Source: an uncultured Actinomycetota bacterium (GTDB lineage Bacteria; Actinomycetota; Actinomycetes; S36-B12; UBA10799). From it: DNA of 64,000 nt. Made by a program: the position numbers and the translations under genes. The first letter of the stretch is position 1; each line of letters begins with the position of its first letter. The notes below the pieces were generated by a model, which saw only the letters and a list, made by a program, of their open reading frames with translations, was not told where the DNA came from and did no database searches. The DNA is taken from NCBI GenBank assembly GCA_963704075.1, contig CAVPGV010000013.1:17481-81480 (forward strand), given 5' to 3'. This document shows, in pieces, positions 35,714 to 55,365 of the stretch.

Positions 35714-35764
35714 GTGCGCCGATCGGCCATACTCGGTATCAGTCGAGGTGAAAGGACCCCGTTG

Positions 35765-36688
35765 ATGGCTGATATTGAGGTTCCCCATCCAGGTGCCTCC
35801 GATATCGTCGGGCGCCTGCTCAGTGACGCGCTGCGGGAGCACCCTGATGTGCAGTGGCTCGGACTGGTGTCCGAGGACGGCTTCGCGATCGCGTCCGAGG
35901 GGGAGGTGTCGGTCGACGACGATGCGGTGGCCGCCGGGGCGGTCCGGATGATGATCCAGGTCCGCGCCATGTCCAAGGCCCTCGGGCAGGCCGGTGCCTC
36001 GCAGATGTTCCTGGAGGGCAGCGACAGCGGGATCTGTGTGATCGACAAGGACCCATGGGTGCTTGTCGTCGTGGGAGCTCCGGGAGTTCCCATCGGGCTC
36101 TTGCGCTACGAGGCCCGCGAGATCGCTGAGGCCTTCCCGATGGGGCAGCGCCCGGCACTGACCGCATCACCGGAGTCCTCGGAGGACGAGGAGTCCGAGC
36201 CCGATGTCCAACCCGATTGGGCGGTGGTCAGCACCGGGACATTCCTGGCCGACGAGTTCGGGGAGGAACCGTCGGAGGATCAAGCTGATCAGGTCGCCGA
36301 CGAGGCGGTCGTGACCGAACCGGACGGCACCCCCGAGATCCGCTGGGCCGACGAGCCCACCATTTCCGATGCTGGTTTCGGTGATGACTTCCTCAGCGGG
36401 GACTCCGCTGCCTTCGCCGCGCCGGATTCCGACGTGGAGGAGCAACCGGCGCCCGACGATTTCGCGGACTGGACCTCTTCGGCGCCCGCCGCCGGGGCCG
36501 GCGATTCCATGTTCGACCTGCCACCACCTGCGCCTGATGTCCCGGTGTCCTTCGAGATGCCCGGCCCGATCGACGACGTGGTGGCCGGCGCTCTGGACGA
36601 CTTGTCAGATCTGGCAGCACCGACGGGGGACCCGATCGACCTGCCGCCGCCCATGGGTCCCGCTTTCGAACTGCCACCTCCCGAGTAG
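35765..36688 (+). CDS. Roadblock/LC7 (MglB-like) domain protein with long acidic Pro-rich C-terminal tail
   Basis: The N-terminal ~125 aa fit the Roadblock/LC7 pattern (HPDVQWLGLVSEDGFAIASEG...MFLEGSDSGICVIDKDPWVLVVVGAPGVPIGLLRYEAREIAEAF). The remaining ~180 aa are D/E/P-rich with three (F/I)(D/E)LPPP motifs. An alternative GTG start lies at 35714. Confidence 0.7.
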   Translation: MADIEVPHPGASDIVGRLLSDALREHPDVQWLGLVSEDGFAIASEGEVSVDDDAVAAGAVRMMIQVRAMSKALGQAGASQMFLEGSDSGICVIDKDPWVLVVVGAPGVPIGLLRYEAREIAEAFPMGQRPALTASPESSEDEESEPDVQPDWAVVSTGTFLADEFGEEPSEDQADQVADEAVVTEPDGTPEIRWADEPTISDAGFGDDFLSGDSAAFAAPDSDVEEQPAPDDFADWTSSAPAAGAGDSMFDLPPPAPDVPVSFEMPGPIDDVVAGALDDLSDLAAPTGDPIDLPPPMGPAFELPPPE

Positions 36689-36694
36689 GCCGGT

Positions 36695-37564
36695 ATGCAA
36701 CTTTCCGGCGCACTCGAGGCCTTCCGGGTCCAGGACGTCCTGGGTCTGGTGGGCCGCAAGCCGGGGCAATGGAAGATCACCCTGGACGGGGGTCCTCGCG
36801 GCCACAGCGCATTCATCGGGCTGCGGGACCGGCAGGTCGTGAGTATCTCCGCGGACTCGTCCCACCAGGATCTGGCGCGGCGGCTGGTGATCGAGGGGGC
36901 CGTCGGAACCACCGGTCTGGCGCAGGCTCTGCGACATGCGAATGAGAACCGGCTTGGGTTGGTGCGGTCTTTGGTCGATAGCGACACCGTGGACCCTGCT
37001 GTCATCCCTGCCACTGTGCGCGCCCACGTGGTGAGTTCGCTGGCATCGCTGACCCATTGGCGCACGGGCACGTTCTCCGTGGACACCGTGGATGTTCTGC
37101 CCGACGACGTCGAGGTCGCTTTCCCGCTGGCAGAACTCAGCGCCGACGTCGTGCAGTTGCTCCAGCGCTGGCGCCCGGCCGCCGACCTGCTCGGGGGGCC
37201 GGCGACTGTGATCGGCGCATACCCGGGTACGGTCCCTGGCCGATTGCGCGGGTTGCACTCCTTGATCGACGGACATCGGACCGTCGCGGAACTCACCGAA
37301 GCATCCGGCCACGGGGAGATCGGCACGGTGGTCGACCTGGCCGATCTGATCGAAGCGCGATGTGCTGTGCCGCTCACCGGCCAGATGGGCGCCGTCGAGC
37401 AGCGCCTGGCCATGCTGGCCGCGCTCGAGCGGCCCAGTGAGGCCGAACAGGGCCGTTCATCCCAGCCGACTCTGTCGGTCATTCCCGGTGGCGCTTCGCA
37501 GCCCGAACCGGTGGACGAGGACGACCTGCTTGCGACCATGCTGAAGGGGGTGCGCGGAGTATGA
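36695..37564 (+). CDS. DUF4388 (PATAN) domain protein
   Basis: The N-terminus MQLSGALEAFRVQDVLGLVGRKPGQWKITLDG..AFIGLRDRQVVSI matches the DUF4388/PATAN pattern (L.G.L..F.L.DVL.L......G.L.L). Its stop overlaps the pilB start (ATGA). Confidence 0.65.
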   Translation: MQLSGALEAFRVQDVLGLVGRKPGQWKITLDGGPRGHSAFIGLRDRQVVSISADSSHQDLARRLVIEGAVGTTGLAQALRHANENRLGLVRSLVDSDTVDPAVIPATVRAHVVSSLASLTHWRTGTFSVDTVDVLPDDVEVAFPLAELSADVVQLLQRWRPAADLLGGPATVIGAYPGTVPGRLRGLHSLIDGHRTVAELTEASGHGEIGTVVDLADLIEARCAVPLTGQMGAVEQRLAMLAALERPSEAEQGRSSQPTLSVIPGGASQPEPVDEDDLLATMLKGVRGV

Positions 37565-39227
37565 AGCAACTCGGCGACATCCTGGTGACGCAAGGCCTGA
37601 TCAGCACCGATCAACTGGAGAAAGCACTGCTCGAGCAGCGCAACGCCGGGCATTCGCTCGGGAGGGTGCTGATCGACTTGGGCATGCTCACGGAGTCGCA
37701 AGTCGTGCAGGCGCTGGCCGCCCAGATCGGGATGCGTTTCGTCGACCTCACCGAGATCACGATGGACGGGGCCGCCCTGACGAAGGTGCCCGGATCTGTC
37801 TGCCGGCGCCACAGTGCCATCCCGATCGGTTTCGAGAACGGCCGTCTGGTGGTGGCCATGAGCGACCCCGCGAACGTGTTCGCGATCGACGACATCCGGT
37901 CGGCCAGCGGTATGACCGTGCAGGCGGTGGTCGCCACCCGCACCGACGTGCAGGCCGCTCTGGACCGGCACTATCGGGCGGACGGGGAGCTGGACGAACT
38001 CACGACGGCTCTGGATGCCGACGAGGAGGACGAAGACCTCGCGTCCATCAAAGAGGTCGTCGAGGACGCCCCGATCGTCAAGTTCGTGAACCTGCTGATC
38101 ACGCAGGGTATCCAGGACCGGGCCTCCGACATCCATCTGGAACCCACCGAGCATGACGTCCGCGTCCGCTTCCGGATCGACGGCGTTCTGCACGAGGTGA
38201 TGCGCTCGCCGAAGTCGATCCAGTCCGGGGTGATCAGCCGATTGAAGATCATGGCCGACATCAACATCGCGGAACGTCGCATACCGCAGGACGGCCGGCT
38301 GAGCGTATCCGCCAACGGTCAGAAGGTGGACCTGCGGGTGGCCACGTTGCCGACCGTGTGGGGCGAGAAGATGGTCCTGCGAATCCTGGACAACTCCACG
38401 GCCATGCTCGACCTGGCCGATCTCGGATTCCGGGATGTCAACTACGAGCGCTACTCGGCCAGTTTCGGCAAGCCCTACGGGATGATCCTGGTCGTCGGTC
38501 CCACCGGATCGGGGAAGTCCACCACGCTCTACGCGACGGTGAACATCCTCAACCGACCGGAGGTGAACATCATCACGGTCGAGGACCCGGTGGAGTACCG
38601 GCTGCCCGGGGTCAATCAGGTGCAGACGCACTCGAAGGCGGGATTGACGTTCGCAGCGGCGCTGCGTTCCATCCTGCGCTCCGACCCGGACATCGTCCTG
38701 ATCGGAGAGGTCCGTGACCACGAGACCGCCCAGATCGCGGTGGAGTCGGCCCTCACCGGGCACCTTGTGCTGACCACGCTTGCACACCAACGACGCCCCC
38801 AGCGCCATCACGCGATTGATCGAAATGGGGATCGAGCCCTTCCTCGTCGGATCGGCACTGGACTGTGTGCTCGCCCAGCGGTTGTGCCGCAGGCTGTGCC
38901 CGAAGTGCAAGGAGGCCTACCAGCCGTCCGCGGCGGCGCTTGAAGTCCGCCGGGATTCACCTCGAACCCGGTCAGGAAGTGCCGCGCATCTACCGGGCGG
39001 TCGGGTGTTCGGTGTGTTCACGGACCGGGTACAAGGGTCGGGTGGCCCTGCACGAGGTGTTGCCGATCACCGAACGGATCGAACGGTTGGCCGTGGAGCG
39101 GGCCTCGTCGGCGACGATCGCGACCGCTGCCCGGGAAGAGGGCATGCAGACACTGCGTTCCGACGGGCTGGCGAAGGTTCTGGCGGGTGTGACGAGTTTG
39201 GACGAGGTTCTGCGGGTGGTTGTGTAG
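37561..39227 (+). pseudogene. pilB: type IV pilus assembly ATPase PilB (GspE family), two +1 frame interruptions as assembled
   Basis: T2SSE_N/MshEN-like N-terminus, Walker A GPTGSGKST, Asp box and Walker B (DPDIVLIGEVRD). Pieces HLVLTTL | [53 protein letters not shown] | [25 protein letters not shown] join across shifts near 38781 and 38941. Both shifts read as CTG becoming CTTG. Confidence 0.88.
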
Positions 39228-39403: not shown

Positions 39404-40549
39404 TTGTCGATGTCGGTACAGAACATGCCACCACCGACCGCACCGGCGCGGCCGACGACCGAGCAGCACATCCGGGCAACCGACATCAGCCTCGTGCAGG
39501 CACTAGAGGCGATGTTGGCACTTGAGGCCAGCGACCTGCACTTGACGGTGGGGGCACCCCCCACGGTCCGGGTCGCCGGTAATCTCCAGTCGCTCGAGGG
39601 GGCGCCTGTCCTCGACAGTCCGTCGTTGCAGCGAGTCCTCTACGCGATGCTCACGCAACAACAACGTGAGGTCTTCGAACAGAGGCTGGAGTTGGACTTC
39701 TCCTACGCCCTGCCGGGCCGGGCGCGCTTTCGAGTCAACATGTACAAGCAGCGGGAATCGGTGGGTGCGGCTTTCCGGGTGATCCCCTTCGACATCAAGA
39801 GCCTTGAGTCCCTGGGCATTCCGCCCGTTGTGGGCTCCTTCGCGTCTCTGCCCCGAGGGTTCGTCCTCGTCACCGGCCCGACTGGATCGGGCAAGAGCAC
39901 GACTCTCGCCTCGCTCATCGATATCGCCAACACTCAAAGACACGACCACATCATGACGGTCGAGGACCCGATCGAGTTCCTGCATCGTCACCGGAGTTGC
40001 CTTGTCAACCAAAGGGAGGTCGGAACCGATACACATTCCTTCGCCGAAGCGCTTAAGCACGTGCTACGTCAGGACCCCGACATCATCCTCGTCGGCGAGA
40101 TGCGAGACCTGGAGACCATTCAGGTGGCGCTGACCGCCGCCGAGACTGGTCACTTGGTCTTTGCGACGTTGCACACGCAGGACGCCGCGCAGACCGTCGA
40201 CCGGATCATCGATGTCTTTCCTCCTCATCAGCAGCAACAGATCCGGCAGCAGGTTGCAGGGACGCTACAGGGAATCGTCTGTCAGACCCTCTGCAAGACC
40301 TCGGACGGCAAGAGTCGAGTCGCCGCCGCCGAGGTCCTGGTCGCCACCCCTGCGATCCGCAACTTGATCCGTGAGGGAAAGACGCACCAGATCTACTCGT
40401 CGATGCAGGCAGGAGCCCAGTTCGGAATGCAGACCATGGACCAACATCTTGCCGAACTCCTGCGTATGCGCAAGATCACCTTCGAGACCGGTGTCGAGAA
40501 GTGTCATCACGTCGAGGACTTCACGCGTCTCGCAGGGAGGTCACGATGA
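39404..40549 (+). CDS. pilT: type IV pilus retraction ATPase PilT
   Basis: 381 aa. ASDLHLTVGAPP, Walker A GPTGSGKSTT, the HRHRSCLVNQREVG region, DPDIILVGEMRD, GHLVFATLHT and AIRNLIREGK (the PilT-specific motif). Confidence 0.92.
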   Translation: MSMSVQNMPPPTAPARPTTEQHIRATDISLVQALEAMLALEASDLHLTVGAPPTVRVAGNLQSLEGAPVLDSPSLQRVLYAMLTQQQREVFEQRLELDFSYALPGRARFRVNMYKQRESVGAAFRVIPFDIKSLESLGIPPVVGSFASLPRGFVLVTGPTGSGKSTTLASLIDIANTQRHDHIMTVEDPIEFLHRHRSCLVNQREVGTDTHSFAEALKHVLRQDPDIILVGEMRDLETIQVALTAAETGHLVFATLHTQDAAQTVDRIIDVFPPHQQQQIRQQVAGTLQGIVCQTLCKTSDGKSRVAAAEVLVATPAIRNLIREGKTHQIYSSMQAGAQFGMQTMDQHLAELLRMRKITFETGVEKCHHVEDFTRLAGRSR

Positions 40550-41770
40550 GTCTCGCCACTTTCGACTACCAGGTACGGGACAGGGCTGGCAAAGTCGTCC
40601 GGGGTCGTATCGAGGCGGAGTCGCCCGCGGTGGTCGCCACGAAGCTCAAAGGAATGGGATACGCGCCCATCTCGATCACTCAGGCGAATGCCGGCCTGAA
40701 GAAGGAGATCAAGATCCCCGGCATGGGCGACAGGGTCAAGTTGAAGGACCTGGCGATCTCCGCACGGCAGTTCGCCACGATGATCAACTCGGGTCTGTCG
40801 TTGCTGCGTGCGCTGTCGATCCTCTCCGACCAAACCGACAACCAAGAACTGGGCGAGGTCTACGCGAGCGTGCGACTGAGGGTGGAGCAGGGTTCGTCGC
40901 TGTCGCAAGCGCTGGCCCAGCACCCCAAGGTGTTCCCACCCATCATGATCAACATGACCCGCGCGGGCGAGACGGGCGGATTCCTCGATCAGGTGCTCAG
41001 CCAGTTCGCCGACAACTTCGAGGCTGAGGTCAAGCTGCGGTCGACCAGTCAAGTCCGCGATGACCTACCCGCTGGTCGTCTTCGCCTTCGCGATCCTGTC
41101 CATGACGGCCATGCTGCTGTTCATCGTCCCGGTGTTCGCGGATCTGTTCGACGAGCCTCGGAGGTACCCTTCCGCTCCCGACCCGCATCCTCGTTGCGAT
41201 CTCGACCATTTTGAAGACCTTCATGCCGGTCATCCTGGTCGCATGCTGATCGCTGCCATGGTCCTCTGGCGCAAGTACAAGAACCAGCCGAGCGTCCGGA
41301 ATGTCGTCGATCCGATGAAGCTGAAGACACCGGTGTTCGGCAAGTTGTTCCAGAAGATCGCTCTGTCCCGCTTCACCCGCAACCTCGGGACGATGATCCA
41401 TGCCGGCGTGCCCATCCTGCAGTCGTTGGACATCGTCGCCGACACGACGGGGAACGTGGTGATCGCACGAGCCGTGCGTGACGTCGAACTGTCTGTGCGG
41501 CAGGGGGAGTCCTTGGCCGGTCCTCTGGTGCATCACCCCGTCTTCCCGCCGATGGTGGTGCAGATGATGGCGGTCGGTGAGGACACCGGATCCCTTGACG
41601 CAATGCTGCACAAGATCTCGGACTTCTACGACGCCGAGGTGGAGGCCACCACGGAGGCGCTGACCTCCTTGATCGAGCCGCTGATGATCGCTTTTGTCGG
41701 TGGAATCGTCGGCGCCATGATCATCGCCCTCTACATGCCGATCTTCAAGGTGTTCGAACTGATCGAGTGA
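40546..41770 (+). pseudogene. pilC: type IV pilus platform protein PilC (GspF family), three frame interruptions as assembled
   Basis: ATGA overlap with pilT, GGGAGG upstream. Two GspF repeats are readable: ..FEAEVKLRS.. | KSAMTYPLVVFAFAILSMTAMLLFIVPVFADLFDE | LGGTLPLPTRILVAISTILKTFMPVILVA | LIAAMVLWRKY... Shifts lie near 41050 (+1), 41155 (+1) and 41243 (-1). Confidence 0.88.
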
Positions 41771-41795: not shown

Positions 41796-44665
41796 TCAGG
41801 CTTTGGCGTCCGCGCTCGGCCGACCGAACAACCAGCCCTGGCCCATCTGCCAGCCCTGTTCGTGCAGGATACCAGCTTGCTGCTCAGTCTCGATCCCTTC
41901 CGCCACCGTGGACAGTGCCATGCCATGCGCCAGGCCCTGCAACCCCTGAGCGAGCCTGCTCCGAGTGGGATCGGTGGCGATCCCACGGGTGAAAGAGCGG
42001 TCCAACTTGAGGCCCTCGACGGGGAGATCACGCAGGTGTGTGATCGATGAGAAGCCCGTGCCGAAGTCGTCGACCCACCAGAGACGCCGATCTCAGCGAG
42101 CGCATGCATGTTCTCCTGTATGCGTTGGGTGTCGGTGAGCAGCGACGTCTCGGTCACCTCCAGCTGGAGCTGAGATGGTAGAGCGCCGGTACGGGCCAAC
42201 TCACTCCGGACGCCGTCAACGAGTCCGGGGTCGCTCAAGGAGGCCGACGACACGTTCACGGAGACCCAGGTCGTCGTCGGCTGTCGCGCTGCCTGTTCCA
42301 AAGCCTGGCCCAGTATCGCCCGGTCCAGGTCGAGGATGAGATCGGCGTGAGCGGCCGCCGGGATGAAGACGTCGGGGGGCACCACGCGGTTCTCGGAGGT
42401 GATCCAGCGAGCGAGCGCCTCATAGCCCACGACGGATCGGGTGCTGAGGGACACGACTGGCTGGAACCACGCCCGGAACTGTCCTGCTGACAGTCCGTCT
42501 CGGATCGCGCTGCGGATGATCACGCGTTCGGTGGCCGCCTTGGCCATGCTGGCGTCCTGGAACTCCCACCGGTTTCCGCCCAAGGACTTCGCGTGGTGCA
42601 GGGCGGTCGACGCGTTCCGCAGCCATTCCTCGCCTGTCGACGCGTCAGCTCGGGCCGCGATTCCGATGCTGACAGTGACATCGATGCTGTGCCCGCCCAC
42701 CGAGGTTGGTGATTTCACGATCGATTGGATGAAGTCTGCCAAGTCGGCGATTGACTCCGTGTCGTGCAGGGGGAGTAGCACCGCGAACTCGTCCTCAGTG
42801 ATCCGCGCGACTCTGGTCGCGTCCAGTCGTTGTAGGTGTTCGGCCACGTGCGACACCACGCTGTCGGCGGCGGCATGGGTGAATCCGTCGATGATCGACC
42901 CCAAGTCATCGATGCCGACTGCTAGTAGGGAGCCTGCGCTCTCGGCCTGGGCCGCCAAGAACGATCGATCGAGATCCGCAAGCAGTGTCCTGCGATTCGG
43001 CAGTCCTGTCAGCTGGTCGTGTCCGGCTTGGTAGGCAAGGCTCATCCGTGCGCTCATCTCCGCCTGGATGTCATGCGCTGTCTCGATGAATCCGGTCGCT
43101 CGACCTCTGCCATCGCGTATGGCGCGCCCGGTGATGCGCATCCACTTCCATTCACCGTCAGCAGTTCTCAGGCGGGCCTCCCGCGTGTCGGCCGACGCCA
43201 ACAAGGTGTCGCGGATGAGGTCCTCGGGATGCACGAAGTCAGTGACATGCCGGCCAAGGATAACCTCGGGCTTCCAGCCGAGTGACTGTGTCACCGACGG
43301 GGAAATCCATGCAAGACGCCCGTCAAAACTCCACTCGTAGACCACGTCGGCGGCGTTCTCGGCCAGGCGGCGGTACTTCCTCTCGGACTCTGCCAGTCGC
43401 CGTTGTGCGAGGTGCCGCTCGGTGACATCTCGAAAGATGAAGTTGAGACTGTTTCCCACCCGAGATGCACGGACGTCCAGGTACAGGGGTTCGGTTGAAT
43501 CGGCGGTTCGGTGGTCACCGGATCCGGTGAATGCGAAGTCATCGAGTATCAAAGGCTCACCGGTCTCGATCACGCGCACATAGCGGTGGAACAGATTGCT
43601 GTTGGCATGCCCCGGAAACACGTCGAGAAGACGCATCCCGATCAGCTCTGGATGGGGGATCTTGAGGTATTCGCACGCCGCCGCATTCGCTTCCATGAGG
43701 ACGAAGTCGATGACCGTGCCCGCCGAGTCCGAGACCGAGTCCAGCGTCAAGTGCGGGTCGAATAGCGTCTCGAGAACCGCAGCCAGGCGACTCTCTCCAC
43801 GCTCTGCGCGCTCACGATGAATGACCAGGTCATGGACGTCGCGCATTCCCGCGACGATGCCCGCGGGTCGACCGTCTGCATCCCTGAGTTGTGTGGCGTT
43901 GCCGGAGAACCAGCGGTACTCGCCATATTTCTTCCGTAGACGTACCTCTATCGTGCGGCCAGAAGGCACGAAGTCGTCCTCCTGAAGAATGCGTCGCCTG
44001 GTCTCCGCGATCGCCTGCGCGTCATCGGGGTGGAGCAGATCGTGGAACGAAGTGCCGATGATCTCGCTGGGTGTCCATCCGAGGGCGGATTCGATGGTGG
44101 GGGCGATCCAGCGGACAATGCCGTCGGGTGCCGACATGTACACGATGTCGGAGGCGTTCTCCGCCAGCAGGCGGAATCTCTCTTTCGTCTCTTCAAGGCG
44201 CTGCTGGGCGAGCCGCCGTTCCGTTGCATCTCGCCAACTACCAACGCGTCCGATGATTGTGCCTTGCTCGTCGTACAGCGGTCTCACCGCCGAGGAGATC
44301 CAGATGTAGTCGCCGGATCGGTGCCGAGCCCGAAACTCCATGACCGCGGGTATCCCATGCGCCACTCGAGCGCGTGTCTCGCTGACCCGGTTCTTGTCCT
44401 CATCGTGGACGAAGTCGAGGAAGTCGCGGTTCGTGACCTCGTCTCGGGGCCATCCGAGCAGTTTCTCCACCGAAGGACTGATCCAGGTGACGGTGCCGAG
44501 GACGTCGGCGCGAAACACAACATCCGAAGCGTTCTCCGCAATGAGCCGGTAGTCCTGCAACTCGAGGTCCTCGGGCGAGGGAACCAAACGCTGCGTAGGC
44601 ACGGAACTGGGTTGCGACGCGGCCCAGCGTGAAACCCCGTCCCCGAGGGCACGCGCCTTCGCCAC
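41796..44665 (-). CDS. PAS x4 - degenerate GGDEF - EAL signalling protein (probable c-di-GMP phosphodiesterase), one frame interruption near 42082 as assembled
   Basis: GTG at 44665 preceded by GGAGG. Four PAS-like units (LIAENASDVVF, LLAENASDIVY, LMEANAAACEYL, LAENAADVVYEW). GGDEF site reads ARITEDEFAVLL. EAL motifs YEALARW and LEVTE, then after a 1-nt gap WWVDDFGTGFSS, LKLDRSF, AEGIETE and QGWLFGRP (ORF 41796..42005). The part of the track ORF below 41796 is antisense to pilC and is not part of this gene. Confidence 0.85.
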
Positions 44666-44928
44666 GTGAAGCCTCCATCTCCGTTGTCGAGTGCCGCAGA
44701 GTTCAGCCGGATGGCGTAACTGTTTCAGGTGGCATACGTTTCGTGCATCCTGAGCATCGATGCGCGTCCGCAGTTTCGCCCGCTGCCCATGCGTGATCTG
44801 GCGGCCGCAATGAGTCGAGTGGTCCAAGGGCCTCGACTTTCGCTGCAATCCGTACGGAATCGGTGCTCGGGGACGAATGATTTCCTCTGCCACCGCCACC
44901 GAGCGATTCGCCTCGCTGCATCGAATGG

Positions 44929-45320: not shown

Positions 45321-45542
45321 CGCCTCATGCAGCGCGTAGGGCGTTTTCGTAGATCACCTCCAGCCGGCCGGCGGCTGCGGCCCGCACCGCCGGCGTCGAT
45401 CCCCTCGACGAGCCCGTCGAACTCGTCTAGATCGATGTCCCTGTCCATACCCCGAACGTAGAACAAAGGTATGCCAGAACGAAAAGCCACTACACAAGCC
45501 GACGAGTCAGCGGTCATGGGTCGCTGCGCGTAGTTTTGTTAC

Positions 45543-46839: not shown

Positions 46840-46848
46840 CCCCAACCC

Positions 46849-47066: not shown

Positions 47067-48437
47067 GTGGAGTCAACATCGCGTTTCGCTGCGCTCGCCT
47101 CCCGGCGGGCGGGAGTCGCTCACGGTGACTCCGGCTTCACCATGATCGAGTTGATGGTGTCCCTGGTGATCCTCGGCATCGTGTCGTCCGGATTCGCTTA
47201 TGGACTGCAACTGACTCTCGCCGTGACCCGCGACGACCGCGCACGCCTGCAGGCATCCAACCTGGCCGCCCGGGAACTCGAGATCGTGCGCAACGAGTTC
47301 GGCGCGTCCAAAGCCGCTCCCACCGCCATTGGTGCGGTGAGCGAGGTCACCAACCCGCATCCCCTCGCCGGCGGCACCAGCGGTCAGCCGCTGAACCTCG
47401 ACGGGACGAAATTCACCGTCGTGCGAACGGTGTCGTGGCTACCCGCAGGTACCGGCACAAGCCCGTGTGACGGAGGTTCCGCCGTCACCTATCCCTCCCT
47501 CGGGGTGAACGTGAAGGTCTCGTGGACGGAATCGGGCCAAAGCCGAGATGTTGAATCGAACACTGTCCTCACACCGCCCAAAGGAACACTGGCGACCATC
47601 AAGGGGTTCATCGCGGCGAAAGTCCAGGGCGCGGACGGCAACGGAGTTGCGGCGCTGCCCGTGGATCTCAGTGGCCCGGGCGGCAGCCAGACGCGGGTGA
47701 CGGCCGCCGACGGCTGTGCTGTCTTCGCCCTGACCACGACGGGCAGCTACACAGTGACACTCGACCAGCCAGGCTTCATCAGTTTCGACGGTCAACCGAC
47801 GACGTCGAAACCGGCGGTGGTGAGTGCGGGATCGATCCAGTTGGTGCCCTTCAGCTACGACCGGGCGTCGACGCTGCAGCTGGAGTACGTGGTCTCTGAC
47901 GGCGTGGGTCCTCAGTTCGGTCTGCCTGATCCGCCGCCTTCAGTCGTCCTGTTCAATCCGAGTCTGCCCACGATGGGTAAGCAGGAGATTGCCAGTGGGC
48001 AGACGACAGTGACAGGGCTGTGGCCGTTCCCCGACGGGTACTCCGTATGGGCGGGAACATGCTCTCTGAACGATCCCGCGGTAACGGGAGGCAGCCGACC
48101 CGAACCCGTGCGGCCCCAGCCCGGAGAAACACTGACAGCCGAGGTGCTGGTGAAGCCGGTGAAGCTCACGTTCATCGACGATTTTGAACAGCCCCTCGTG
48201 GGAGAACCCGTGCTGGTCAAGATCAACGACGAGACCGGCTGTCGCGAAACGGAGTTCCAACTGGGGACCACGGATGCCAATGGCGTAGTCCAAGGGGCCT
48301 TGCCTTATGGCCAGTGGAAGGCGAGGATCGATGACCCGGATGGGGTAGGTGAGGACTATCTCATGTCGGTCGACGTGTCCGCGGACGGTTCGGTGACGTA
48401 CCCTCTCGAACTGCCGCAGGGGGTGGGTGGCGGATGA
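47067..48437 (+). CDS. prepilin-type minor pilin fused to carboxypeptidase-regulatory-like beta-sandwich domains
   Basis: 456 aa. N-terminal G|FTMIELMVSLVILGIV prepilin motif. Later segments (GFIAAKVQGADGNGVAALPVDL..GSYTVTLDQPGF; KLTFIDDFEQPLVGEPVLV..DANGVVQGALPYGQWK) resemble CarboxypepD_reg folds. Confidence 0.7.
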   Translation: MESTSRFAALASRRAGVAHGDSGFTMIELMVSLVILGIVSSGFAYGLQLTLAVTRDDRARLQASNLAARELEIVRNEFGASKAAPTAIGAVSEVTNPHPLAGGTSGQPLNLDGTKFTVVRTVSWLPAGTGTSPCDGGSAVTYPSLGVNVKVSWTESGQSRDVESNTVLTPPKGTLATIKGFIAAKVQGADGNGVAALPVDLSGPGGSQTRVTAADGCAVFALTTTGSYTVTLDQPGFISFDGQPTTSKPAVVSAGSIQLVPFSYDRASTLQLEYVVSDGVGPQFGLPDPPPSVVLFNPSLPTMGKQEIASGQTTVTGLWPFPDGYSVWAGTCSLNDPAVTGGSRPEPVRPQPGETLTAEVLVKPVKLTFIDDFEQPLVGEPVLVKINDETGCRETEFQLGTTDANGVVQGALPYGQWKARIDDPDGVGEDYLMSVDVSADGSVTYPLELPQGVGGG

Positions 48438-49150
48438 ATTCACTCAACGCGGCGCGCAGGAATGACCAGGGGATAACCATGGTCGAGATGATGGTTGTGG
48501 TGAGCATCCTTGGAACGGTGCTCGCGATCGTCAGTCAGGGCTTGATCATTTCGCAGAAGACCCTCAACGAGAATGCCGGGCGACTGCAGGGCGTGTCACA
48601 GACCAACGTCGCGGTCGAAGCCATGACGCGGGTCCTACGCACGGCGATCCTTCCTTCGCAGGTCCAAGCCACGTGTTCTGGCTGTGACGTCGCCGCCTTC
48701 ATCGAAGGTGATGCCAGGTACGTCAAGTTTTACGCGAATGTCGACAACGACGGCATCCTGCCAACCTCGGGGACGACCGACTACGGGCCCCGGCGTGTGA
48801 CCTACAGCGTCGATGCGCAGAACGTCCTGACCGAGACGATCCAGAAACCGAACCTGCACGCGGTCAACGACTTCGACTACCAGTACTGCAACCCGGGGCC
48901 CTCCTGTCCGGTACAGACCCGGATCCTCACCAGGGACGTGGAGCCCGGGCCGCTGTTCACCTACTACGACCGGACCGGTGCCGTGATCGCAACGCCATTG
49001 CAATCAGCAGTCTCGCGGTTGAAGTCCGTCGACAGCATCGACCTCGTGATCGCGGTCCGGCCTTCCGATCGTGCCGACTCGTCGACGGTCACTGCGCGCG
49101 TCACCTTGCCCAACGCAGACTCCCTGATCCAACCCACGCCCACCCCTTGA
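48434..49150 (+). CDS. prepilin-type minor pilin (PilW/PulJ-like)
   Basis: 238 aa. N-terminal QG|ITMVEMMVVVSILGTVLAIV prepilin-type motif. Start overlaps the upstream stop. Confidence 0.7.
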   Translation: MNSLNAARRNDQGITMVEMMVVVSILGTVLAIVSQGLIISQKTLNENAGRLQGVSQTNVAVEAMTRVLRTAILPSQVQATCSGCDVAAFIEGDARYVKFYANVDNDGILPTSGTTDYGPRRVTYSVDAQNVLTETIQKPNLHAVNDFDYQYCNPGPSCPVQTRILTRDVEPGPLFTYYDRTGAVIATPLQSAVSRLKSVDSIDLVIAVRPSDRADSSTVTARVTLPNADSLIQPTPTP

Positions 49151-49154: not shown

Positions 49155-51278
49155 GTGACAGCCATGAATACCCAAGTTCCCGCCACGCCGAGCAGCGAGC
49201 GCGGAGCCGCGATGATCATGGTCATGGGGATGATCTCGGTGATGACTCTTGTCGTCACCGCAGCCCTGAGTTATGCCTTGAGCGTCGCTCCCCAAGTGGT
49301 CCGCGACGAGAACTGGCAGGCCGCGCTGGCAGCTGCCCAGGCGGGGGTGGACGACTATCTCGCCCGGCTCAACAGGACTGACGCCTACGCCTTGAGCGTG
49401 GATTGCTCGAATGTGGCATTGCGGGGTCCGAAGGCGGAGGCCAACGGATGCGGATGGACGAGCACGACCACCCCCGGATGGGTGGATGTCCAGGCCGGCA
49501 AGCCCCAGGCGGGCAAGTTCCACTACGACGTCAACACCGCCAACTTCTGGAAGGATGGCTCGGTCTGGGTGGAGTCGACCGGAAAGGTTCGCGGCATATC
49601 GCGGACGATCCAGGTACGCGTTGCGCGCGGGGGATCGACGGACTTCCTCTACTACACGGACTTCGAGGACGCGGACCCTCAGAACTTGGTCGCCTACCCG
49701 CCCGGCGACAGTGATTCACTGCCCACAGGCGGGGCCAAGTACAACGAATGCGGAAAGAGCGGACCTAGTCTGGCGACGTATTGGTGGCAAGGGGGCTCGC
49801 GTGTGACCAGCGGCCTCTGCCAGGAGATCCAGTTCGCTGGTTACGACGTACTCGACGGTGACGTCCATTTCAACGACAGTCCGCTCATGGGCGGCTACGG
49901 AGGGACCCGACCCCGCTTCCTCAAAGGCTACGAAGTGGCCGATCCCAACTGCACGGAGGAAGCCGGTGCCCCGGATGCCAGCGGTGTGGGAAAGTCCATT
50001 GGCAAAGGTAAATGCTGGCGCAGCACATCGTCGGTCTCGCCCTACCTGAGTAGCGCGGGGGCTCGGCCGGCTTTGCCGCTGTACCTGCCGGACAACTCCG
50101 ACAAGTTCTCCACCTACCCGGGCTGCAATTACTACGGAGACACGAGGATCAAGTTCAACAGCAACGGGACCATGACCGTGTGGAACACCACCAGCGCAGG
50201 CAAATCACTCACCGGTCCGTCCTCGCCGCCCGGCACGAACTGCGGCAATGCGTCACAGTTCGTGCCGGCATCCGGCACGAAGTATCCGGCGACTGGTCAG
50301 ACCATCCCGGTGCCGCAGGACCTCGTCATCTACGTGCAGGCGGCGGACTCGGGCTCCGCGGCCTGCGTGCCCGGCCAGATCGTCAACGGCTCGTCGTCGG
50401 GTAGCGCATCCAGCGACGTCATCCCACAAGGCAGCGGGGACCGCTACCAGGACGTCACCGACATCAGCTACTACAACCCATCGACCAGCAGCTATGGCGT
50501 CACCAAACGGTGGAAGAAGATCAGCGGGGATTGGAAGCCTGATCCCGACTTTGTTCCCGAGCGGCAGGAAACCACCGAGGTGCCGGAGGGCGACGTGCAT
50601 CCCCTGACCTTCGACTGTGGGTCTGGCAACGTCTATGTCGAAGGCACTGTGAAGGGCCGGGTCACGATTGCTGCGCAGAACAACGTGGTCGTGACAGGAG
50701 ACCTGGCCATCAACGGCACGGCCAAAGGCAACTCGGCCATCGGCCCGGACATGGTCGGCTTGGTCTCGGCGAACTCCGTGGTGGTCTACCACCCCGTTGC
50801 TCGGTCCCGGTCCACGAGCGAAGGTACCGCTTCAGCGACCAAGTCTCCCCGAAAGCTGAAGGTCGACTGCCCGTCGAGGTCCAGTGACACGCTATCCGAC
50901 AAAGATGGCAAGAACGGAAACACCATCACCTGTGAATGGCCGGTGAAGACAACCTTCGGGAGCAGTTACAGCAACATCTCGTATCCAGGCGCGACCAACT
51001 CGTCGGGCAACCGGTGGATCTACGCGTCCATCCAGACGCTGGCTCGCAGTTTCTGGGTGCAGAACTATAACCAGGGGGCCGATCTGGGAACTCTCTCGGT
51101 GAGGGGGTCGATAGCTCAGAAATGGCGTGGTGCGGTCGGCACCTCGGGTGGCACCGGCTACGCCAAGGACTATTCCTACGACTCCCGTCTTCAATTCGCT
51201 TCGCCGCCCTACTTCCCGCAGTGGACCAACGCCGCGTGGGGTGCCAAGGTCACCGGTGAGTTGTCGGCCCGCTACTGA
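49155..51278 (+). CDS. large pilus-associated protein with PilX-like N-terminal anchor (candidate tip or adhesin component)
   Basis: 707 aa. The N-terminus SSERGAAMIMVMGMISVMTLVVTAALSYAL resembles the PilX_N/TadG-type hydrophobic anchor. The remainder is Gly/Ser/Thr/Asn-rich and predicted beta-rich. No catalytic motif recognised. Confidence 0.55.
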   Translation: MTAMNTQVPATPSSERGAAMIMVMGMISVMTLVVTAALSYALSVAPQVVRDENWQAALAAAQAGVDDYLARLNRTDAYALSVDCSNVALRGPKAEANGCGWTSTTTPGWVDVQAGKPQAGKFHYDVNTANFWKDGSVWVESTGKVRGISRTIQVRVARGGSTDFLYYTDFEDADPQNLVAYPPGDSDSLPTGGAKYNECGKSGPSLATYWWQGGSRVTSGLCQEIQFAGYDVLDGDVHFNDSPLMGGYGGTRPRFLKGYEVADPNCTEEAGAPDASGVGKSIGKGKCWRSTSSVSPYLSSAGARPALPLYLPDNSDKFSTYPGCNYYGDTRIKFNSNGTMTVWNTTSAGKSLTGPSSPPGTNCGNASQFVPASGTKYPATGQTIPVPQDLVIYVQAADSGSAACVPGQIVNGSSSGSASSDVIPQGSGDRYQDVTDISYYNPSTSSYGVTKRWKKISGDWKPDPDFVPERQETTEVPEGDVHPLTFDCGSGNVYVEGTVKGRVTIAAQNNVVVTGDLAINGTAKGNSAIGPDMVGLVSANSVVVYHPVARSRSTSEGTASATKSPRKLKVDCPSRSSDTLSDKDGKNGNTITCEWPVKTTFGSSYSNISYPGATNSSGNRWIYASIQTLARSFWVQNYNQGADLGTLSVRGSIAQKWRGAVGTSGGTGYAKDYSYDSRLQFASPPYFPQWTNAAWGAKVTGELSARY

Positions 51279-51328: not shown

Positions 51329-52096
51329 GTGACGGTGATCGCCGGTTTCGTCGGTCTGCTGATCGGCTCGTTCCTGAACGTGGTCGTATGGCGGCTACCG
51401 CGCGGCGAATCCCTGTCCCATCCGGGATCGCACTGTCCGGCCTGCGGGCGTCCGATCCGGCACTACGACAACATCCCTGTGGTGTCGTGGCTTGTCCTCC
51501 GCGGGAAGTGTCGTGACTGTGGCGCCCGCATCTCCATCCGCTACCCCCTCGTGGAGTTGGGGACCGGTCTGGCGTTCGCGGCGACCGCTGCCTCGATCGG
51601 ATTCTCCGTCCTGCTGCCCTTCGCCTTATGGTTCGTGGCAGCCTGCATCGCCATGGTGCTGATCGATGTCGACCACCACCGCCTGCCCAACACATTGACC
51701 GTGTCCACGTATCTCGTGGTCGTCGCGGGCTTGGCGGTCACGGCGGCGGTCGACGACACCTGGTCAGCGTTCCTGCGAGCGGTCGCCGGAGGAGCGGTGC
51801 TCGCGGTGATCTACGCGGGACTGGCGTTTGCCTTCCCCAAGGGCATGGGATGGGGCGATGTGAAACTTGCGGCCGGGCTGGGCACGGCCCTGGCCTGGTA
51901 CGGCTGGGCCGAGTTAGTGGTGGGCGGTTTCGGTGCCTTTTTCCTCGGGGCGGTGTGGGGACTGGCCTCGATGGCGGCGGGAAAGGCAGGAAGGAAGAGC
52001 GCGTTGGCGTTCGGGCCCTTCATGATTGTGGCGACATTCCTGGCCATGGCATGGGGCGCGGATATCGCGACCTGGTACGCCAGTCTGCTGAGTTGA
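51329..52096 (+). CDS. pilD: prepilin peptidase / N-methyltransferase (A24 family)
   Basis: 255 aa. SFLNVVVWRLP, a CPACG..CRDCG zinc-type motif, and catalytic-Asp regions (IDVDHHRLPN; GMGWGDVKLAAGLG). Confidence 0.92.
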   Translation: MTVIAGFVGLLIGSFLNVVVWRLPRGESLSHPGSHCPACGRPIRHYDNIPVVSWLVLRGKCRDCGARISIRYPLVELGTGLAFAATAASIGFSVLLPFALWFVAACIAMVLIDVDHHRLPNTLTVSTYLVVVAGLAVTAAVDDTWSAFLRAVAGGAVLAVIYAGLAFAFPKGMGWGDVKLAAGLGTALAWYGWAELVVGGFGAFFLGAVWGLASMAAGKAGRKSALAFGPFMIVATFLAMAWGADIATWYASLLS

Positions 52097-52163: not shown

Positions 52164-53209
52164 GTGAGCAGAGCCACGGTGGGTTTGGAGGTGGGATCCT
52201 CCGCGGTTCGTCTTGCGACGGTCAACCGCACCAGGGGTGGCCCTGTGCTCGAACACATCGGTGAGGCTGCCCTGGCCGCGGGTGCGGTCATCGATGGCGA
52301 ATTGCAGGACCCCGACGCATTGCGGATCGCGGTACGGCAGGCGGTCAAGAGCGGTAAGCCGGGTAGCAAGGGTGTTCGGCTAGGTGTGTTGAGCCAGAGG
52401 ATGGTAGCCCGCCAGGTCGATCTGCCGTGGGTGCCCGACAAGGAGTTCAAACAAGCTCTGCCGCTGTTGGCCGCTGATTGCCTCCCGATGCCCGTTCAGG
52501 ACTGTGTTCTGGACTTCCTGGGATCGGCTGAGGTCCTGGACGACGACGGCGCGAGACTCCGCAGGGGTCTACTCGTCGCAGCCAGTGAGCAAGGAGTCCA
52601 GGATGTGGTGGATGCGGTCGAGGCATCGGGCCTGCGCGTCGGCTCCGTGACCCTCACACCACTGTCCACTCTGGCCGCGCTGGCAGACGCGAACGCTCCC
52701 GCTCCTGAGGCATTGCTGGACATCGGGCACACCATGACGACCGTGACGATTCATGAGAACGGCCAGCCCGCGTTCGTGCGGATTCTCGCGCGCGGCGGCC
52801 GTGACATCACCATCGCGCTGGCAGACCATCTGGGTATCAGCGAAAGCGACGCCGAACGATGGAAGTGCGCAGTGCCGGCCATGTGGACGTCCATGAGCCC
52901 CGCGGATCGTGGCGCGACCGAGACGGCCATCCGCGAGGCTGTGGCCGACCTCGTTTCGGACATCCGCACCTCGATCGATTTCTACAACACCAGCGAGGGG
53001 ATCCGGGTCGGCCGGGCCTATGTCGTGGGAGGTGGCGGTGCCACGCTCGGCCTGGTGCCGATCCTGGCCTCTGTGCTGCGAGCTCCCGTCGACGGCCGGC
53101 AGCGGTCATGTCGTACGGCCCGGCAAGTCGCTCTCCCCGGCCGAATATGCACTTGCCGGCAGCCCGGCGTCCGCGGCCTGCCGTAGCCCTGGCACTGGGG
53201 GCGGCATGA
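52164..53209 (+). pseudogene. pilM: type IV pilus assembly protein PilM (actin-like ATPase), two +1 frame interruptions near the 3' end as assembled
   Basis: VGLEVGSSAVRLA.., DIGHTMTTVTI and VVGGGGATLGL motifs. The C-terminus reads LRAPVD | AGSGHVVRPGKSLSPAEYALAGSPAS.. | ..PAVALALGAA* across shifts near 53090 and 53170. The restored stop overlaps the pilN ATG (ATGA at 53206-53209). Confidence 0.85.
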
Positions 53210-53955
53210 CTACCGACTACCGGCAAAGCGCAGGCCCCGCGGAACAGCCCGAGCCCATCCCTGAGCGTGTGCAAGCACCAGTCGAGCCGGTTGGGGCATT
53301 GGCCACTCTCTTGCCTCGGAAGTCATTTCCGACGCCGAGTCTCATCCCGCCTGCCGTTCTGCGTCGCCGGGCCGTGGGCAAAGCTCAGCGGGCAGGGGCC
53401 ATCGCGCTGCTCGTCGTCCTCGGGGTATTCGGGGTCTTGTTCCTGCTGGGTCGGATGCAGCTCGCCGCCGCGCAGCAGCAGTTGTCGGCGGCCGAGCAGC
53501 AGCTGCAGGTCGCCGAGGCCGCAAAGGCCGAATACAGCGAAGTGCCCGCCGTGTATGCAGCGGTTGATGCGGCTCGGTCCGAACTGGCGCAAGCGATGGG
53601 AAACGAAGTGCAAGTAGCGCGTTTGGTGACGAACCTCAGCGCCATCATGCCCCCCTCGGTCTCGTTGACGACAGTCTCGATGACCATCGGTGAGGACGAG
53701 ACCACTTCATCCACAGCCGCCACCACGACCGATGTCATTGAGCCGCTGGTCGGGACGGTCACCTTCTCGGGGGAGGCCCGAAGTTTCAACGACGTGTCGA
53801 CGTGGATCGACACCTTGCGTGGACAAGCCGATTACCAGAACGTGATCCTGACCGACGTGTCGCGGGACACCGAGAACGGGATCTACATCTTCAGCAACTC
53901 CGCTGAACTCACCGATCAGGCCTTGTCCGGGCGGTTCGTCGAGGAGACGCAATGA
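53206..53955 (+). CDS. pilN: type IV pilus assembly protein PilN
   Basis: About 250 aa. Cytoplasmic N-terminus, one TM helix (AIALLVVLGVFGVLFLL), a coiled coil (QLAAAQQQLSAAEQQLQVAE), then a PilN-type periplasmic-like domain. Confidence 0.75.
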   Translation: MTTDYRQSAGPAEQPEPIPERVQAPVEPVGALATLLPRKSFPTPSLIPPAVLRRRAVGKAQRAGAIALLVVLGVFGVLFLLGRMQLAAAQQQLSAAEQQLQVAEAAKAEYSEVPAVYAAVDAARSELAQAMGNEVQVARLVTNLSAIMPPSVSLTTVSMTIGEDETTSSTAATTTDVIEPLVGTVTFSGEARSFNDVSTWIDTLRGQADYQNVILTDVSRDTENGIYIFSNSAELTDQALSGRFVEETQ

Positions 53956-54662
53956 AGAGCAATCCGAGGTTCTGGCAGATCGGGGCGGTCGTCGTCGTCC
54001 TGGTGCTCGGGTACGTCGGGTGGGTGTTGCTGGTCCGTCCGGTGTTCGCAGCCGTGGGGCAGACCCGCGACGAGACCACCGCCACAGAAGAACAGACTCA
54101 GCGGACGATGCTCGAGACACGGCAACTGGCCGAACAGAAAAAGGACCTGCAGGAACAGATCGACTCGCTGGAGCGGATTCGGGCAAAGATCCCGAAGGAT
54201 GTGAACGTCCCGAAGCTGATGCGGACCATTCAGGCCGAGGCGCGGGCCGAGGGTGTGGAACTGGACTCTCTGCAGCCAGGTCAGATCACGCTCTTCAAGA
54301 TTCCTGAGCCGTCGCCCGCGCCGAGTACCGCAAAGCCAGAAGCAAATGCCTCGCAGAGCCCAGCCCCCAAACCCGTCCCGACCCCGACGAACCTGGGCCA
54401 AGGCGTCGCGCCACGCAACACCGGCGTCGCGTATGTACCGCTGACGCTCTCGGGCCAGGGTGCGTACTCGGCCATCCGTCGACTGACATCGCGGCTGGAG
54501 CAGCAGCAGCGCGCGTTCCTGGTGACCTTGATCGACGTCAACCGGCAAGGCGACGACGAAGCCCAGGAGCCGCTGCAATTCACCATGCAGGCACGCGTGT
54601 TCGTCCTGAACGGCGACAACGTCAGCCTGCCGGCGGATCTGCGCACGGACGGAGGTGATTGA
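53952..54662 (+). CDS. pilO: type IV pilus assembly protein PilO
   Basis: 236 aa. One TM helix, a coiled coil (QLAEQKKDLQEQIDSLERIRAKIP), then ..LMRTIQAEARAEGVELDSLQPG.., typical of PilO. Overlaps the pilN stop. Confidence 0.75.
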   Translation: MKSNPRFWQIGAVVVVLVLGYVGWVLLVRPVFAAVGQTRDETTATEEQTQRTMLETRQLAEQKKDLQEQIDSLERIRAKIPKDVNVPKLMRTIQAEARAEGVELDSLQPGQITLFKIPEPSPAPSTAKPEANASQSPAPKPVPTPTNLGQGVAPRNTGVAYVPLTLSGQGAYSAIRRLTSRLEQQQRAFLVTLIDVNRQGDDEAQEPLQFTMQARVFVLNGDNVSLPADLRTDGGD

Positions 54663-55365
54663 GGTGTCGGAGTACCTCGAAGAGAACCGGCGCGCCGTGA
54701 TCATGCTGATCGTCGCGGTGTGTGTCGCGCTCTTGGGCGGCCTGTACCTGCTGCTGTCCCTTGGCGGCAACGAAGAAGAAGTGGCCCCGATACCGCACAA
54801 CGACAACCCCAGCGCCGTGCAGGACACGGACCCGGTCACCGACGAGTCCGAAGCCGTCGAGAGCATCTATGTCGCTCGGGGCACCAGCGCGAATCCGTTC
54901 GGGCCGTTGGCGGGCGCGCAGAAGCAGGAGAAGTCCACGTCCGGGACGTCTTCGGAGACCTCCACCAGCAAATCGACGACGAGTTCGACGAAGAAGACCA
55001 ACACACCGACAACTTCCACGCCGCCCAAGAAGAGCAGCGTCGAGAATCAGGAACCCGCACTGGAACCTGTCCCGCGGCAGAACGACCCTGCACCGAAGCC
55101 CGATGACCCGCAACCCATCGTTCCCGAACCCATCGGTGGCCCCGGAAAAGACGGTGAGGAGCTGCTGGTCCGCGTCATCGATGTGCAACCGGAACTGATG
55201 ACTGCCCGCGTCAACGGCGAGCGGACCAAGCTGTACCTCAACGAGCCGAACGAGCTCGGCGGCCTGACCTACCTGGCGCCGCTCGGAGGTGGCTGCGCGT
55301 GGGTGGGAATGTCGGACACCGAGGTGCGCTTCAGCGTGTGCAAGGGCAAGACCGAGCGCCTGTAG
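54655..55365 (+). CDS. PilP-like membrane-anchored protein with Ser/Thr/Pro/Lys-rich linker
   Basis: 236 aa. One TM helix, an ANPFGPL motif (compare the (R/N)(D/N)PF motif of PilP), a long STK/P-rich linker, and a small C-terminal beta-rich domain. 8-nt overlap with pilO. Confidence 0.5.

Follow-up and report, generated by a model that had tools for sequence, protein, structure and literature searches.

The pilus cluster and its gene content

The stretch of DNA analyzed in our study (hereafter the window) comprises 64,000 nt of an uncultured Actinomycetota bacterium (GCA_963704075.1, contig CAVPGV010000013.1, positions 17,481-81,480 of the forward strand), and it holds a type IV pilus (T4P) gene cluster situated between the shikimate pathway genes aroE and aroC. 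An earlier note on this DNA had placed there, in the interval 35714-55365 (19,652 nt), a secretin-less cluster of the type IVa pilus (T4aP) kind with the retraction gene pilT, and both the limits of the interval, which agree with those of the open reading frames (ORFs), and the nature of the cluster were borne out. Taken together, the interval probably represents a standard monoderm, secretin-less T4aP cluster standing at its usual site, with the frameshifts that interrupt some of its genes being most likely errors of the assembly consensus. The genes of the interval and those bordering it are as follows:

34910..35713, plus strand: aroE, shikimate dehydrogenase, left flank (Shikimate_dh_N 9.6e-22, SDH_C 5.9e-10)
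35765..36688, plus strand: Roadblock/LC7 protein with a long acidic, proline-rich tail (Robl_LC7 3.3e-08)
36695..37564, plus strand: PATAN (PatA_N/DUF4388) protein (DUF4388 2.1e-08, profile positions 1-122 of 122)
37561..39227, plus strand: pilB, extension ATPase with MshEN and T2SSE, two frameshifts (T2SSE 1.3e-97, MshEN 2.1e-22)
39410..40549, plus strand: pilT, retraction ATPase, intact (T2SSE 9e-46; TIGR01420 pilT_fam 487 bits, cut-off 319)
40546..41770, plus strand: pilC, platform protein, frame broken three times (two T2SSF domains, in different frames)
41796..44665, minus strand: PAS(x3-4)-GGDEF-EAL gene, convergent with pilC (PAS, GGDEF and EAL matches)
44703..45517, minus strand: degenerate HNH endonuclease remnant in two frames (HNH motif residues in the translation)
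45543..46214, plus strand: histidine phosphatase (branch 1), upstream of pilA (His_Phos_1 2.8e-32)
46435..46839, plus strand: pilA, major pilin, 134 aa (N_methyl 1e-08; IV_pilin_GFxxxE and PilA/GspG-type matches)
47067..48437, plus strand: minor pilin 1, 456 aa, with Ig-like domains (N_methyl 1.6e-07, weak Big_1/CarboxypepD_reg)
48434..49150, plus strand: minor pilin 2, 238 aa (N_methyl 1.2e-06)
49164..51278, plus strand: large pilin-like protein, 704-707 aa, candidate tip protein (PilX_N-type hydrophobic N-terminus)
51329..52096, plus strand: pilD, prepilin peptidase/N-methyltransferase (A24_N_bact 4.6e-36, Peptidase_A24 2.4e-13)
52164..53209, plus strand: pilM, two frameshifts near the 3′ end (PilM_2 1.2e-26)
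53206..53955, plus strand: pilN (PilN 3.8e-08; 61% identity to PilN of the related locus L003)
53952..54662, plus strand: pilO (PilO 2.3e-08, T2SSM_b 1.9e-04)
54664..55365 (ORF from 54655), plus strand: membrane-anchored protein at the PilP position, 233-236 aa (no Pfam family)
55388..56557, plus strand: aroC, chorismate synthase (Chorismate_synt 1.7e-116)
56554..57058, plus strand: aroK, shikimate kinase, frameshifted (SKI profile in two frames)

In regard to gene identities, hidden Markov model (HMM) searches with Pfam and NCBIfam profiles assigned Robl_LC7, DUF4388/PatA_N, PilB, PilT, PilC, PilA, PilD, PilM, PilN and PilO, on the basis of T2SSE with MshEN for PilB, T2SSE/pilT_fam for PilT, two T2SSF domains for PilC, three N_methyl matches, A24_N_bact with Peptidase_A24, PilM_2, PilN and PilO. 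The pil genes listed by the earlier note are all present, while three elements between pilC and pilA, two of them on the minus strand, had escaped it. The flanks had been given as alaS-ruvX-mltG-aroE on the left and aroC-aroK-aroB-aroQ-pepQ-efp-nusB on the right, and domain matches and gene calls agree with this: tRNA-synt_2c, RuvX and YceG were recognized in the gene calls of the near-identical locus L001 (an ENA metagenome contig with 97.4% nucleotide identity to the window over 21,134 nt, used as the main alignment reference) and Shikimate_dh_N in the window itself, while the right side holds Chorismate_synt, SKI, Peptidase_M24, EF-P and NusB, together with DHQ_synthase and DHquinase_II recognized via L085, a relative locus 91.5% identical to the window. 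The ATGA/GTGA overlaps between genes are present as described, and so is the gap of 22 nt separating the last pil stop codon (55365) from the aroC ATG (55388).

Several gene borders and products could be refined by comparison with the relatives. The Roadblock/LC7 ORF opens at 35714, with a likely start at the ATG in 35765, as indicated by a 307-aa gene call in L001 and by tblastn with the L003 protein. The PATAN stop codon overlaps the pilB ATG (ATGA), and PatA_N is also found in the gene calls of L001, L003 and L004. Corrected for its frameshifts, PilB has 554 aa; against TIGR02538 (cut-off 675.65) it falls slightly short with 659 bits, the match spanning positions 2-562 of the 564 in the profile. 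The PilT translation contains the AIRNLIRE motif, the reconstructed PilC shares 96% identity over 100% of the length with intact PilC proteins of 406 aa, and the true stop of pilM overlaps the pilN ATG. The PilQ secretin was not found among the ORFs of the 35.7-55.4 kb region, all of which are accounted for, as expected for a monoderm, since the secretin belongs only to diderm systems. Rfam gave no riboswitch or other RNA within the pil locus; one tRNA gene (60643-60716, minus strand) was the sole Rfam match in the window.

Class III signal peptides, with glycine at -1 and glutamate at +5, are carried by three proteins (G↓FTLIE, G↓FTMIE and G↓ITMVE). The leader of PilA, MFARIQEARENEEG, is 14 residues long and would be cleaved before FTLIE (...EEG↓FTLIE), and both the peptidase and the N-methyltransferase domains are united in PilD (A24_N_bact and Peptidase_A24), as is characteristic of T4aP. 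Compared with L001, the C-terminal half of PilA is hypervariable (14.6% mismatches and many indels over 46421-46839), the spacer between pilA and the first minor pilin gene (46840-47066) shows 7% mismatches and many indels, and the neighboring genes differ by 1-2%. The divergence of the PilA C-terminal half would fit diversifying selection or recombination acting on the major pilin. Minor pilin 1 is intact, with a ratio of non-synonymous to synonymous substitution rates (dN/dS) of 0.13.

For the large pilin-like protein of 707 aa, no match was obtained with Pfam or NCBIfam, and among its 290 homologues some are named PilX by their sources. Its AlphaFold (AF2) model (predicted local distance difference test, pLDDT, 76; predicted template modeling score, pTM, 0.72) consists of a long alpha-1 helix (residues 16-74) and a beta-rich body, and the top three Foldseek matches of this model were chains of the Thermus thermophilus competence pilin ComZ (6qvi), with E-values of 0.01-0.075 and a probability of up to 0.77. 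The weak resemblance to Thermus ComZ seen in the model is regarded here as a lead, not as proof. If followed, it could mean that the structure is primarily a DNA-uptake (competence) pilus instead of one for adhesion or twitching, with the 707-aa protein as a ComZ-like DNA receptor at the tip. The ComZ chains are the sole near-significant structural matches of the model, and retraction driven by PilT is what DNA uptake requires. However, their E-values never reach 0.001, the template modeling scores (TM-scores) amount to 0.18-0.30 at a root-mean-square deviation (rmsd) of 17-19 Å, and comEA, comEC and dprA were not seen within the 64-kb window. A primary role in DNA uptake is therefore considered unlikely, and such a role would not exclude other functions of the same pilus.

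The last ORF before aroC (54655-55365) had been described as PilP-like. No Pfam match to PilP (PF04351) was obtained for this ORF, nor for ten distant relatives collected by profile search; 33 database homologues, all unnamed, were found, and 46 representative clusters among 1.84 billion proteins, with no PilP domain in any of them. Their alignment shows a transmembrane (TM) helix (residues 9-33), an invariant RGTxxNPFGPL motif, a disordered linker rich in S, T and P, and, at the C-terminus, a conserved domain that spans ~65 residues and contains two cysteines, for which AF2 predicts seven beta strands (pLDDT ~75). Foldseek gave nothing at E≤0.001 for this ORF, with Pseudomonas aeruginosa PilP (2y4y) at rank 31 (E 0.9, TM-score 0.48 normalized to the target) in a list with numerous small beta-barrels. 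Counterparts with the same arrangement of TM helix, [DN]PF motif, linker and beta domain stand at the same position in the distant relatives L007, L021, L027, L047 and L067. The PilP-like label thus finds no Pfam signal and a fold match at noise level, and what it rests on is position and topology. An R/GxxPF-type motif is what we take to be a feature of PilP, and the protein is plausibly a functional analogue of PilP whose membership in that family is supported by neither HMM nor fold search. As a separate observation, in five Cellulomonas-type loci (L025, L037, L045, L051 and L061, from Actinotalea, Sanguibacter and uncultured Cellulomonadaceae/Actinomycetes metagenome-assembled genomes, MAGs) the pilO ORF ends in ...NPFAP, and hardly any space, or none, is left for a further gene ahead of aroC; the NPF motif, which in the window belongs to a protein of its own, appears to be fused to PilO there.

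Frameshifts and their origin

At least 15 frameshifts are present in the 64 kb, and seven of them break pilB, pilC and pilM, so that the cluster, called complete in the earlier note, is not complete as written and would be so only if the shifts are technical. Frameshifts were mapped from alignments to related loci and from the coordinates of Pfam profile matches, codon-usage segmentation having been dropped as too noisy. A tblastn junction scan with the ORFs of relatives confirmed those in pilB and pilC; it is blind to short terminal pieces such as those of pilM and aroK, where the shifts were worked out by hand and against L085.

In pilB, one additional nucleotide is found at 38782 and another at 38940 relative to L001, leaving T2SSE positions 3-243, 243-288 and 292-370 in three frames, and pilC carries +1 at 41047, +1 at 41153 and +2 at 41245 relative to the same reference. 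The PAS-GGDEF-EAL gene has a 1-nt deletion at 42081 (again relative to L001), with EAL positions 3-147 and 175-236 in two frames. In pilM there is a shift near ~53092 and an additional C at 53177 (relative to L085), with the C-terminus spread across three frames when compared with L003, and in aroK an additional G at 56624 (relative to L085) parts the P-loop (SKI 1-19) from SKI 21-156. In eight of these nine pil and aro shifts bases are gained, mostly outside homopolymers; six of the eight are seen as insertions against relatives, and the two in pilM follow from a +1 change of frame, the one at 53177 being then confirmed by L085. Outside the cluster, aspS (27192-28941) is split between ~28344 and 28408, with tRNA-synt_2 positions 2-184 and GAD in 27192-28382 and positions 185-307 in 28282-28941. 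The cyclophilin peptidyl-prolyl isomerase gene (24258-25107, minus strand; Pro_isomerase positions 4-39 and 43-157) and the Na+/H+ exchanger gene (11-1532, plus strand; profile positions 5-129 and 127-367) each lie in two frames, and a DUF222-HNH endonuclease gene (21512-22763, minus strand) has three shifts and lies in three frames. Breaks occur in the related loci as well: two extra bases are found in the 5′ end of pilC in L001 (L001 positions 9904 and 9936), and the EAL gene and minor pilin genes are fragmented in L004 (L004 11.2-19.4 kb). In L003, alaS is short (857 aa vs. 890 aa; L003 71-2644).

Two origins of these shifts have to be weighed, and we judge it very likely that they are errors of the assembly consensus, a technical origin that we infer from several lines of evidence. 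Corrected PilB and its L001 counterpart differ by a single one of 554 amino acids, their coding sequences being separated by 28 synonymous and 2 non-synonymous changes (dN/dS 0.02), and for PilC dN/dS is 0.12; genes with two to three frameshifts each are thus without relaxed selection, which favors error over decay. Bacterial mutation is usually biased towards deletions, and the error origin is further favored by shifts that mostly add bases and mostly fall outside homopolymers. It is also favored because shifts fall in two essential genes, aspS and aroK, the one in aspS being a strong hint of consensus errors in the contig, and because the closest relatives ("contig_N" assemblies) carry their own breaks at different sites. 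Intact versions exist among them: L001 encodes a 554-aa PilB and a 956-aa PAS-GGDEF-EAL protein, and L003 is intact from aroE through PilO.

Alternatively, pilB, pilC and pilM could be genuine pseudogenes in a lineage whose pilus is being lost during reductive genome evolution. Such decay would account for seven frameshifts in three core pil genes and for the hits in other dispensable genes (HNH gene three times, peptidyl-prolyl isomerase, EAL gene, Na+/H+ exchanger), for the intact state of the long essential genes alaS, relA and secDF, and for the independent breaks of pilC, the EAL gene and the minor pilins in L001 and L004. Two of these points weigh directly against a technical origin: the shifts are clustered, with none in alaS, relA, secDF, ruvABC, hisS and thrS (~45 kb in all), and several dispensable genes are hit two or three times, as decay would also give. 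On the other hand, the nearly unchanged PilB bears no trace of relaxed selection, and the ratio of indels to non-synonymous changes in pilB is 2:2, while in natural decay substitutions normally outnumber indels. The bias towards insertions outside homopolymers and the shifts in essential aspS and aroK likewise speak against decay, which is considered improbable. With consensus errors as the preferred explanation, the organism itself probably has an intact locus. This is of practical importance, as annotators of this contig would call pilB, pilC, pilM, aroK and aspS pseudogenes, and this assembly would be an unsafe basis for concluding that the pilus is lost or that the organism is auxotrophic for aromatic amino acids.

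Two further peculiarities were observed elsewhere in the window. SecD (16241-17974) has an Asn/Lys-rich run, NNNNKKKKNNNNKNG, in its periplasmic domain, odd at 65% GC, which may be a genuine insert of low complexity or have arisen in the assembly. A WS/DGAT acyltransferase (11933-13732) has an N-terminal extension of ~120 residues of PAAKK repeats, which also matches histone H1-like HC2.

The aroE-aroC site in other Actinomycetes

The distribution of the cluster was followed with an alignment of the reconstructed PilC and 13 homologues, used to scan one genome per GTDB species. The window proteins were mapped onto the 80 best loci, 57 of which have at least 4.5 kb of upstream sequence and could be assessed on that side. 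In 41 of these 57, alaS-ruvX-mltG-aroE lies directly upstream of pilB/pilT on the same strand, and 32 loci carry aroC downstream of the pil genes, often with aroK and aroB next in line. For 24 loci, many of them MAGs, the flanks on both sides can be seen; among these are Cellulomonas humilata, C. iranensis, C. cellasea, C. citrea, Sanguibacter hominis, Demequina soli, Kineosporia babensis and Quadrisphaera granulorum. These counts on the upstream side and at both flanks together make the space between aroE and aroC the usual site of the cluster in T4aP-bearing Actinomycetes. Exceptions are Nocardioides and Aeromicrobium, where the region is rearranged, and Microbacteriaceae such as Curtobacterium, Cryobacterium and Leifsonia. 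The nearest relatives of the window are MAGs that carry the labels Candidatus Nanopelagicales, Micrococcales or Actinomycetota, and no exact sequence match was obtained for its own PilT, PilO and P0121 proteins.

The insertion into the shikimate operon, presented in the earlier note as a peculiarity of this genome, is accordingly a widely shared site. The associated idea of a pil island acquired recently by horizontal transfer into an otherwise contiguous operon draws on the GC content, which at 62-65% is slightly lower in the pil region than in the flanks (67-69%; 65-68% across the window). To our knowledge, Actinobacteria without this pilus have aroE close to aroC, and T4P-less Mycobacterium and Corynebacterium presumably keep a relic of the prepilin peptidase between the two genes. 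Yet the same site and the same order of flanking genes recur in Cellulomonadaceae, Sanguibacteraceae, Demequinaceae, Kineosporiaceae and Acidothermaceae/Frankiales-type MAGs, groups across which PilC identity falls from 86% down to ~56%, and a pilMNO...-aroK-aroB linkage is common to Proteobacteria (PMC7545093). A recent acquisition of the island is therefore very hard to reconcile with the data, and we regard it as highly improbable.

Co-transcription with the aro genes had been put forward as an unusual arrangement, and here too precedents exist. In Gammaproteobacteria, pilMNOPQ followed by aroK-aroB is a conserved arrangement (PMC7545093), and the type IV pilus operons of Acinetobacter baylyi include the essential genes aroB and aroK (PMC5542475), so that linkage of pil and aro genes is documented well outside Actinomycetes. 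In our literature search, no open paper on the aroE-pil-aroC arrangement in Actinobacteria was found. For the window, we infer that the pil genes are co-transcribed with aroC; in the promoter and terminator scan, signals were no better than those of shuffled sequences and did not delimit operons, which counts against the overall reading.

Within this conserved frame, two segments differ among the relatives. The Roadblock and PATAN genes are present only in closer relatives, where the gap between aroE and pilB measures 2.8-5 kb, compared with 0.1-0.3 kb elsewhere, and judging from this gene order they are a clade-specific addition. The second segment is the junction between pilC and pilA. The PAS-GGDEF-EAL gene is also located there in L001, L002 and L004, L003 and L005 have an intact DUF222-HNH gene instead, and in more distant genomes pilC is directly followed by pilA. 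The window and L001 hold both the PAS-GGDEF-EAL gene and the HNH remnant (44703-45517, without Pfam match), and the histidine phosphatase gene is kept at the same position in L001-L005. Such a pattern suggests that the junction is a variable insertion site that has received successive insertions, and, as far as gene content can tell, only the PAS-GGDEF-EAL/HNH segment is a lineage-specific insertion. In the translation of the PAS-GGDEF-EAL gene, the GGDEF motif is degenerate (ITEDEF), whereas the EAL, EVTE and DDFGTG motifs are intact, and the protein is therefore probably a cyclic di-GMP (c-di-GMP) phosphodiesterase.

Proposed machine, its control and comparison with known systems

Gene identities, gene order, the positions of the frameshifts and synteny were read directly from the sequences, and the following model of pilus function and regulation draws on the established roles of the families concerned. 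The substrates cleaved and methylated by PilD would be PilA, both minor pilins and, probably, the large PilX_N/ComZ-like protein. PilB, acting on the PilC platform held by PilM, PilN and PilO, would polymerize the filament through the cell wall, the NPF-motif membrane protein encoded after pilO may join the PilM-PilN-PilO complex, and PilT would depolymerize the filament, leading to its retraction.

Three candidate routes for the control of PilB can be proposed from the content of the cluster. The first is an MshE-type c-di-GMP-binding motif at the PilB N-terminus, where residues 3-55 match the MshE-related c-di-GMP motif NF053729 with 67 bits (cut-off 38). Receptors of the MshEN type have tandem 24-residue RLGxx(L/V/I)(L/V/I)xxG(L/V/I)(L/V/I)xxxxLxxxLxxQ motifs, and in PilB both leading Arg of the canonical RLG motifs are replaced (KQLG, HSLG), which counts against this route and makes c-di-GMP binding uncertain despite the match to NF053729. 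The second is the cluster-encoded PAS sensor with its degenerate GGDEF and intact EAL domains, the probable phosphodiesterase. The third candidate is the pair of Roadblock/LC7 and PATAN proteins, translationally coupled to pilB. PATAN response regulators bind the PilB1 motor in Synechocystis (bioRxiv 10.1101/2021.06.11.447907); the PATAN protein coupled to PilB here is a stand-alone one, and the Roadblock and PATAN genes have neither an MglA GTPase nor a receiver domain nearby.

A broader, tentative proposal would join these observations, namely that this uncultured clade has built a control module for PilB from Roadblock/LC7, PATAN and the phosphodiesterase, and that the linkage of pilMNO with aroK-aroB is ancient and functionally maintained. 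We consider this combination possible, with the balance leaning against it. If true, the cluster-encoded PAS phosphodiesterase could act on the MshE-type N-terminus of PilB, and the pilMNO-aroK-aroB linkage shared with Proteobacteria would be more than chance synteny.

Among the closest known systems is the monoderm T4aP of Firmicutes (Clostridium perfringens, C. difficile and Streptococcus sanguinis; PMC6916266), which likewise has a single locus with PilB, PilT, PilC, PilD, PilM, PilN, PilO, one major and several minor pilins and no secretin. The cluster described here differs in its high-GC actinobacterial host, in the short, 14-residue pilin leader, in being embedded between aroE and aroC, and in the additional Roadblock/LC7, PATAN, PAS-GGDEF-EAL, His_Phos, 707-aa ComZ-like and NPF-motif proteins, the last encoded after pilO. 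The Tad/Flp (type IVc) pili of Bifidobacterium breve and Micrococcus luteus (PMC6916266) belong to the same superfamily and are found in the same phylum, but rely on short Flp pilins and a pair of platform paralogues (TadB and TadC); their peptidase lacks the methyltransferase domain, and they have neither PilT nor PilMNO. A Tad/Flp assignment was considered and ruled out by the 134-aa pilin with GFTLIE, the single PilC, and the presence of A24_N_bact and PilT.

A large minor pilin of the ComZ kind combines the N-terminal pilin helix with a sizeable beta-solenoid insertion. In the large protein, the comparison with T. thermophilus ComZ (6qvi) extends to a very large pilin-like product, a long N-terminal helix, a beta-rich body and a gene located beside those of minor pilins. 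The two differ in sequence (10-11% identity) and superpose with a low TM-score, and the N-terminus of the 707-aa protein is PilX_N-like (ERGAAMIMVMG), without the canonical G/FxxxE.

The scarcity of T4aP studies in Actinomycetota, claimed at the outset, is supported by a 2019 review, in which the pili studied in Actinobacteria are of the Tad type (PMC6916266). Predictions of T4aP in Actinobacteria exist (PMC6668835). The zoospore pili of Actinoplanes missouriensis (Kimura et al. 2019, J Bacteriol 201:e00746-18; cited in PMC11522434) are the one experimentally studied non-Tad T4P of Actinomycetota that we found cited. The lifestyle of this organism, with flagellated zoospores, differs, and the Actinoplanes PilC falls outside the best 80 loci of our survey and is thus more distant than ~54% identity. 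Actinobacterial T4aP are, in other words, almost unstudied experimentally. Our comparison shows how widely the aroE-pil-aroC synteny is shared, and it adds the Roadblock-PATAN-PilB module, the insertion site with its variable c-di-GMP/HNH content and the ComZ-like protein, among which the module, the embedded putative c-di-GMP phosphodiesterase and the ComZ-like 707-aa protein offer testable leads on the regulation and function of actinobacterial T4aP.

Finally, the pilMNOPQ-aroK-aroB arrangement of Gammaproteobacteria resembles the one in the window in that genes of the alignment complex likewise stand directly upstream of shikimate genes on the same strand. In the window, PilQ and a recognizable PilP are missing from the series, aroC is interposed between the pil genes and aroK-aroB, and the whole pil cluster, not just pilMNO, occupies the aro neighborhood. 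The synteny described here extends the linkage of pil and aro genes from Proteobacteria to a monoderm phylum.

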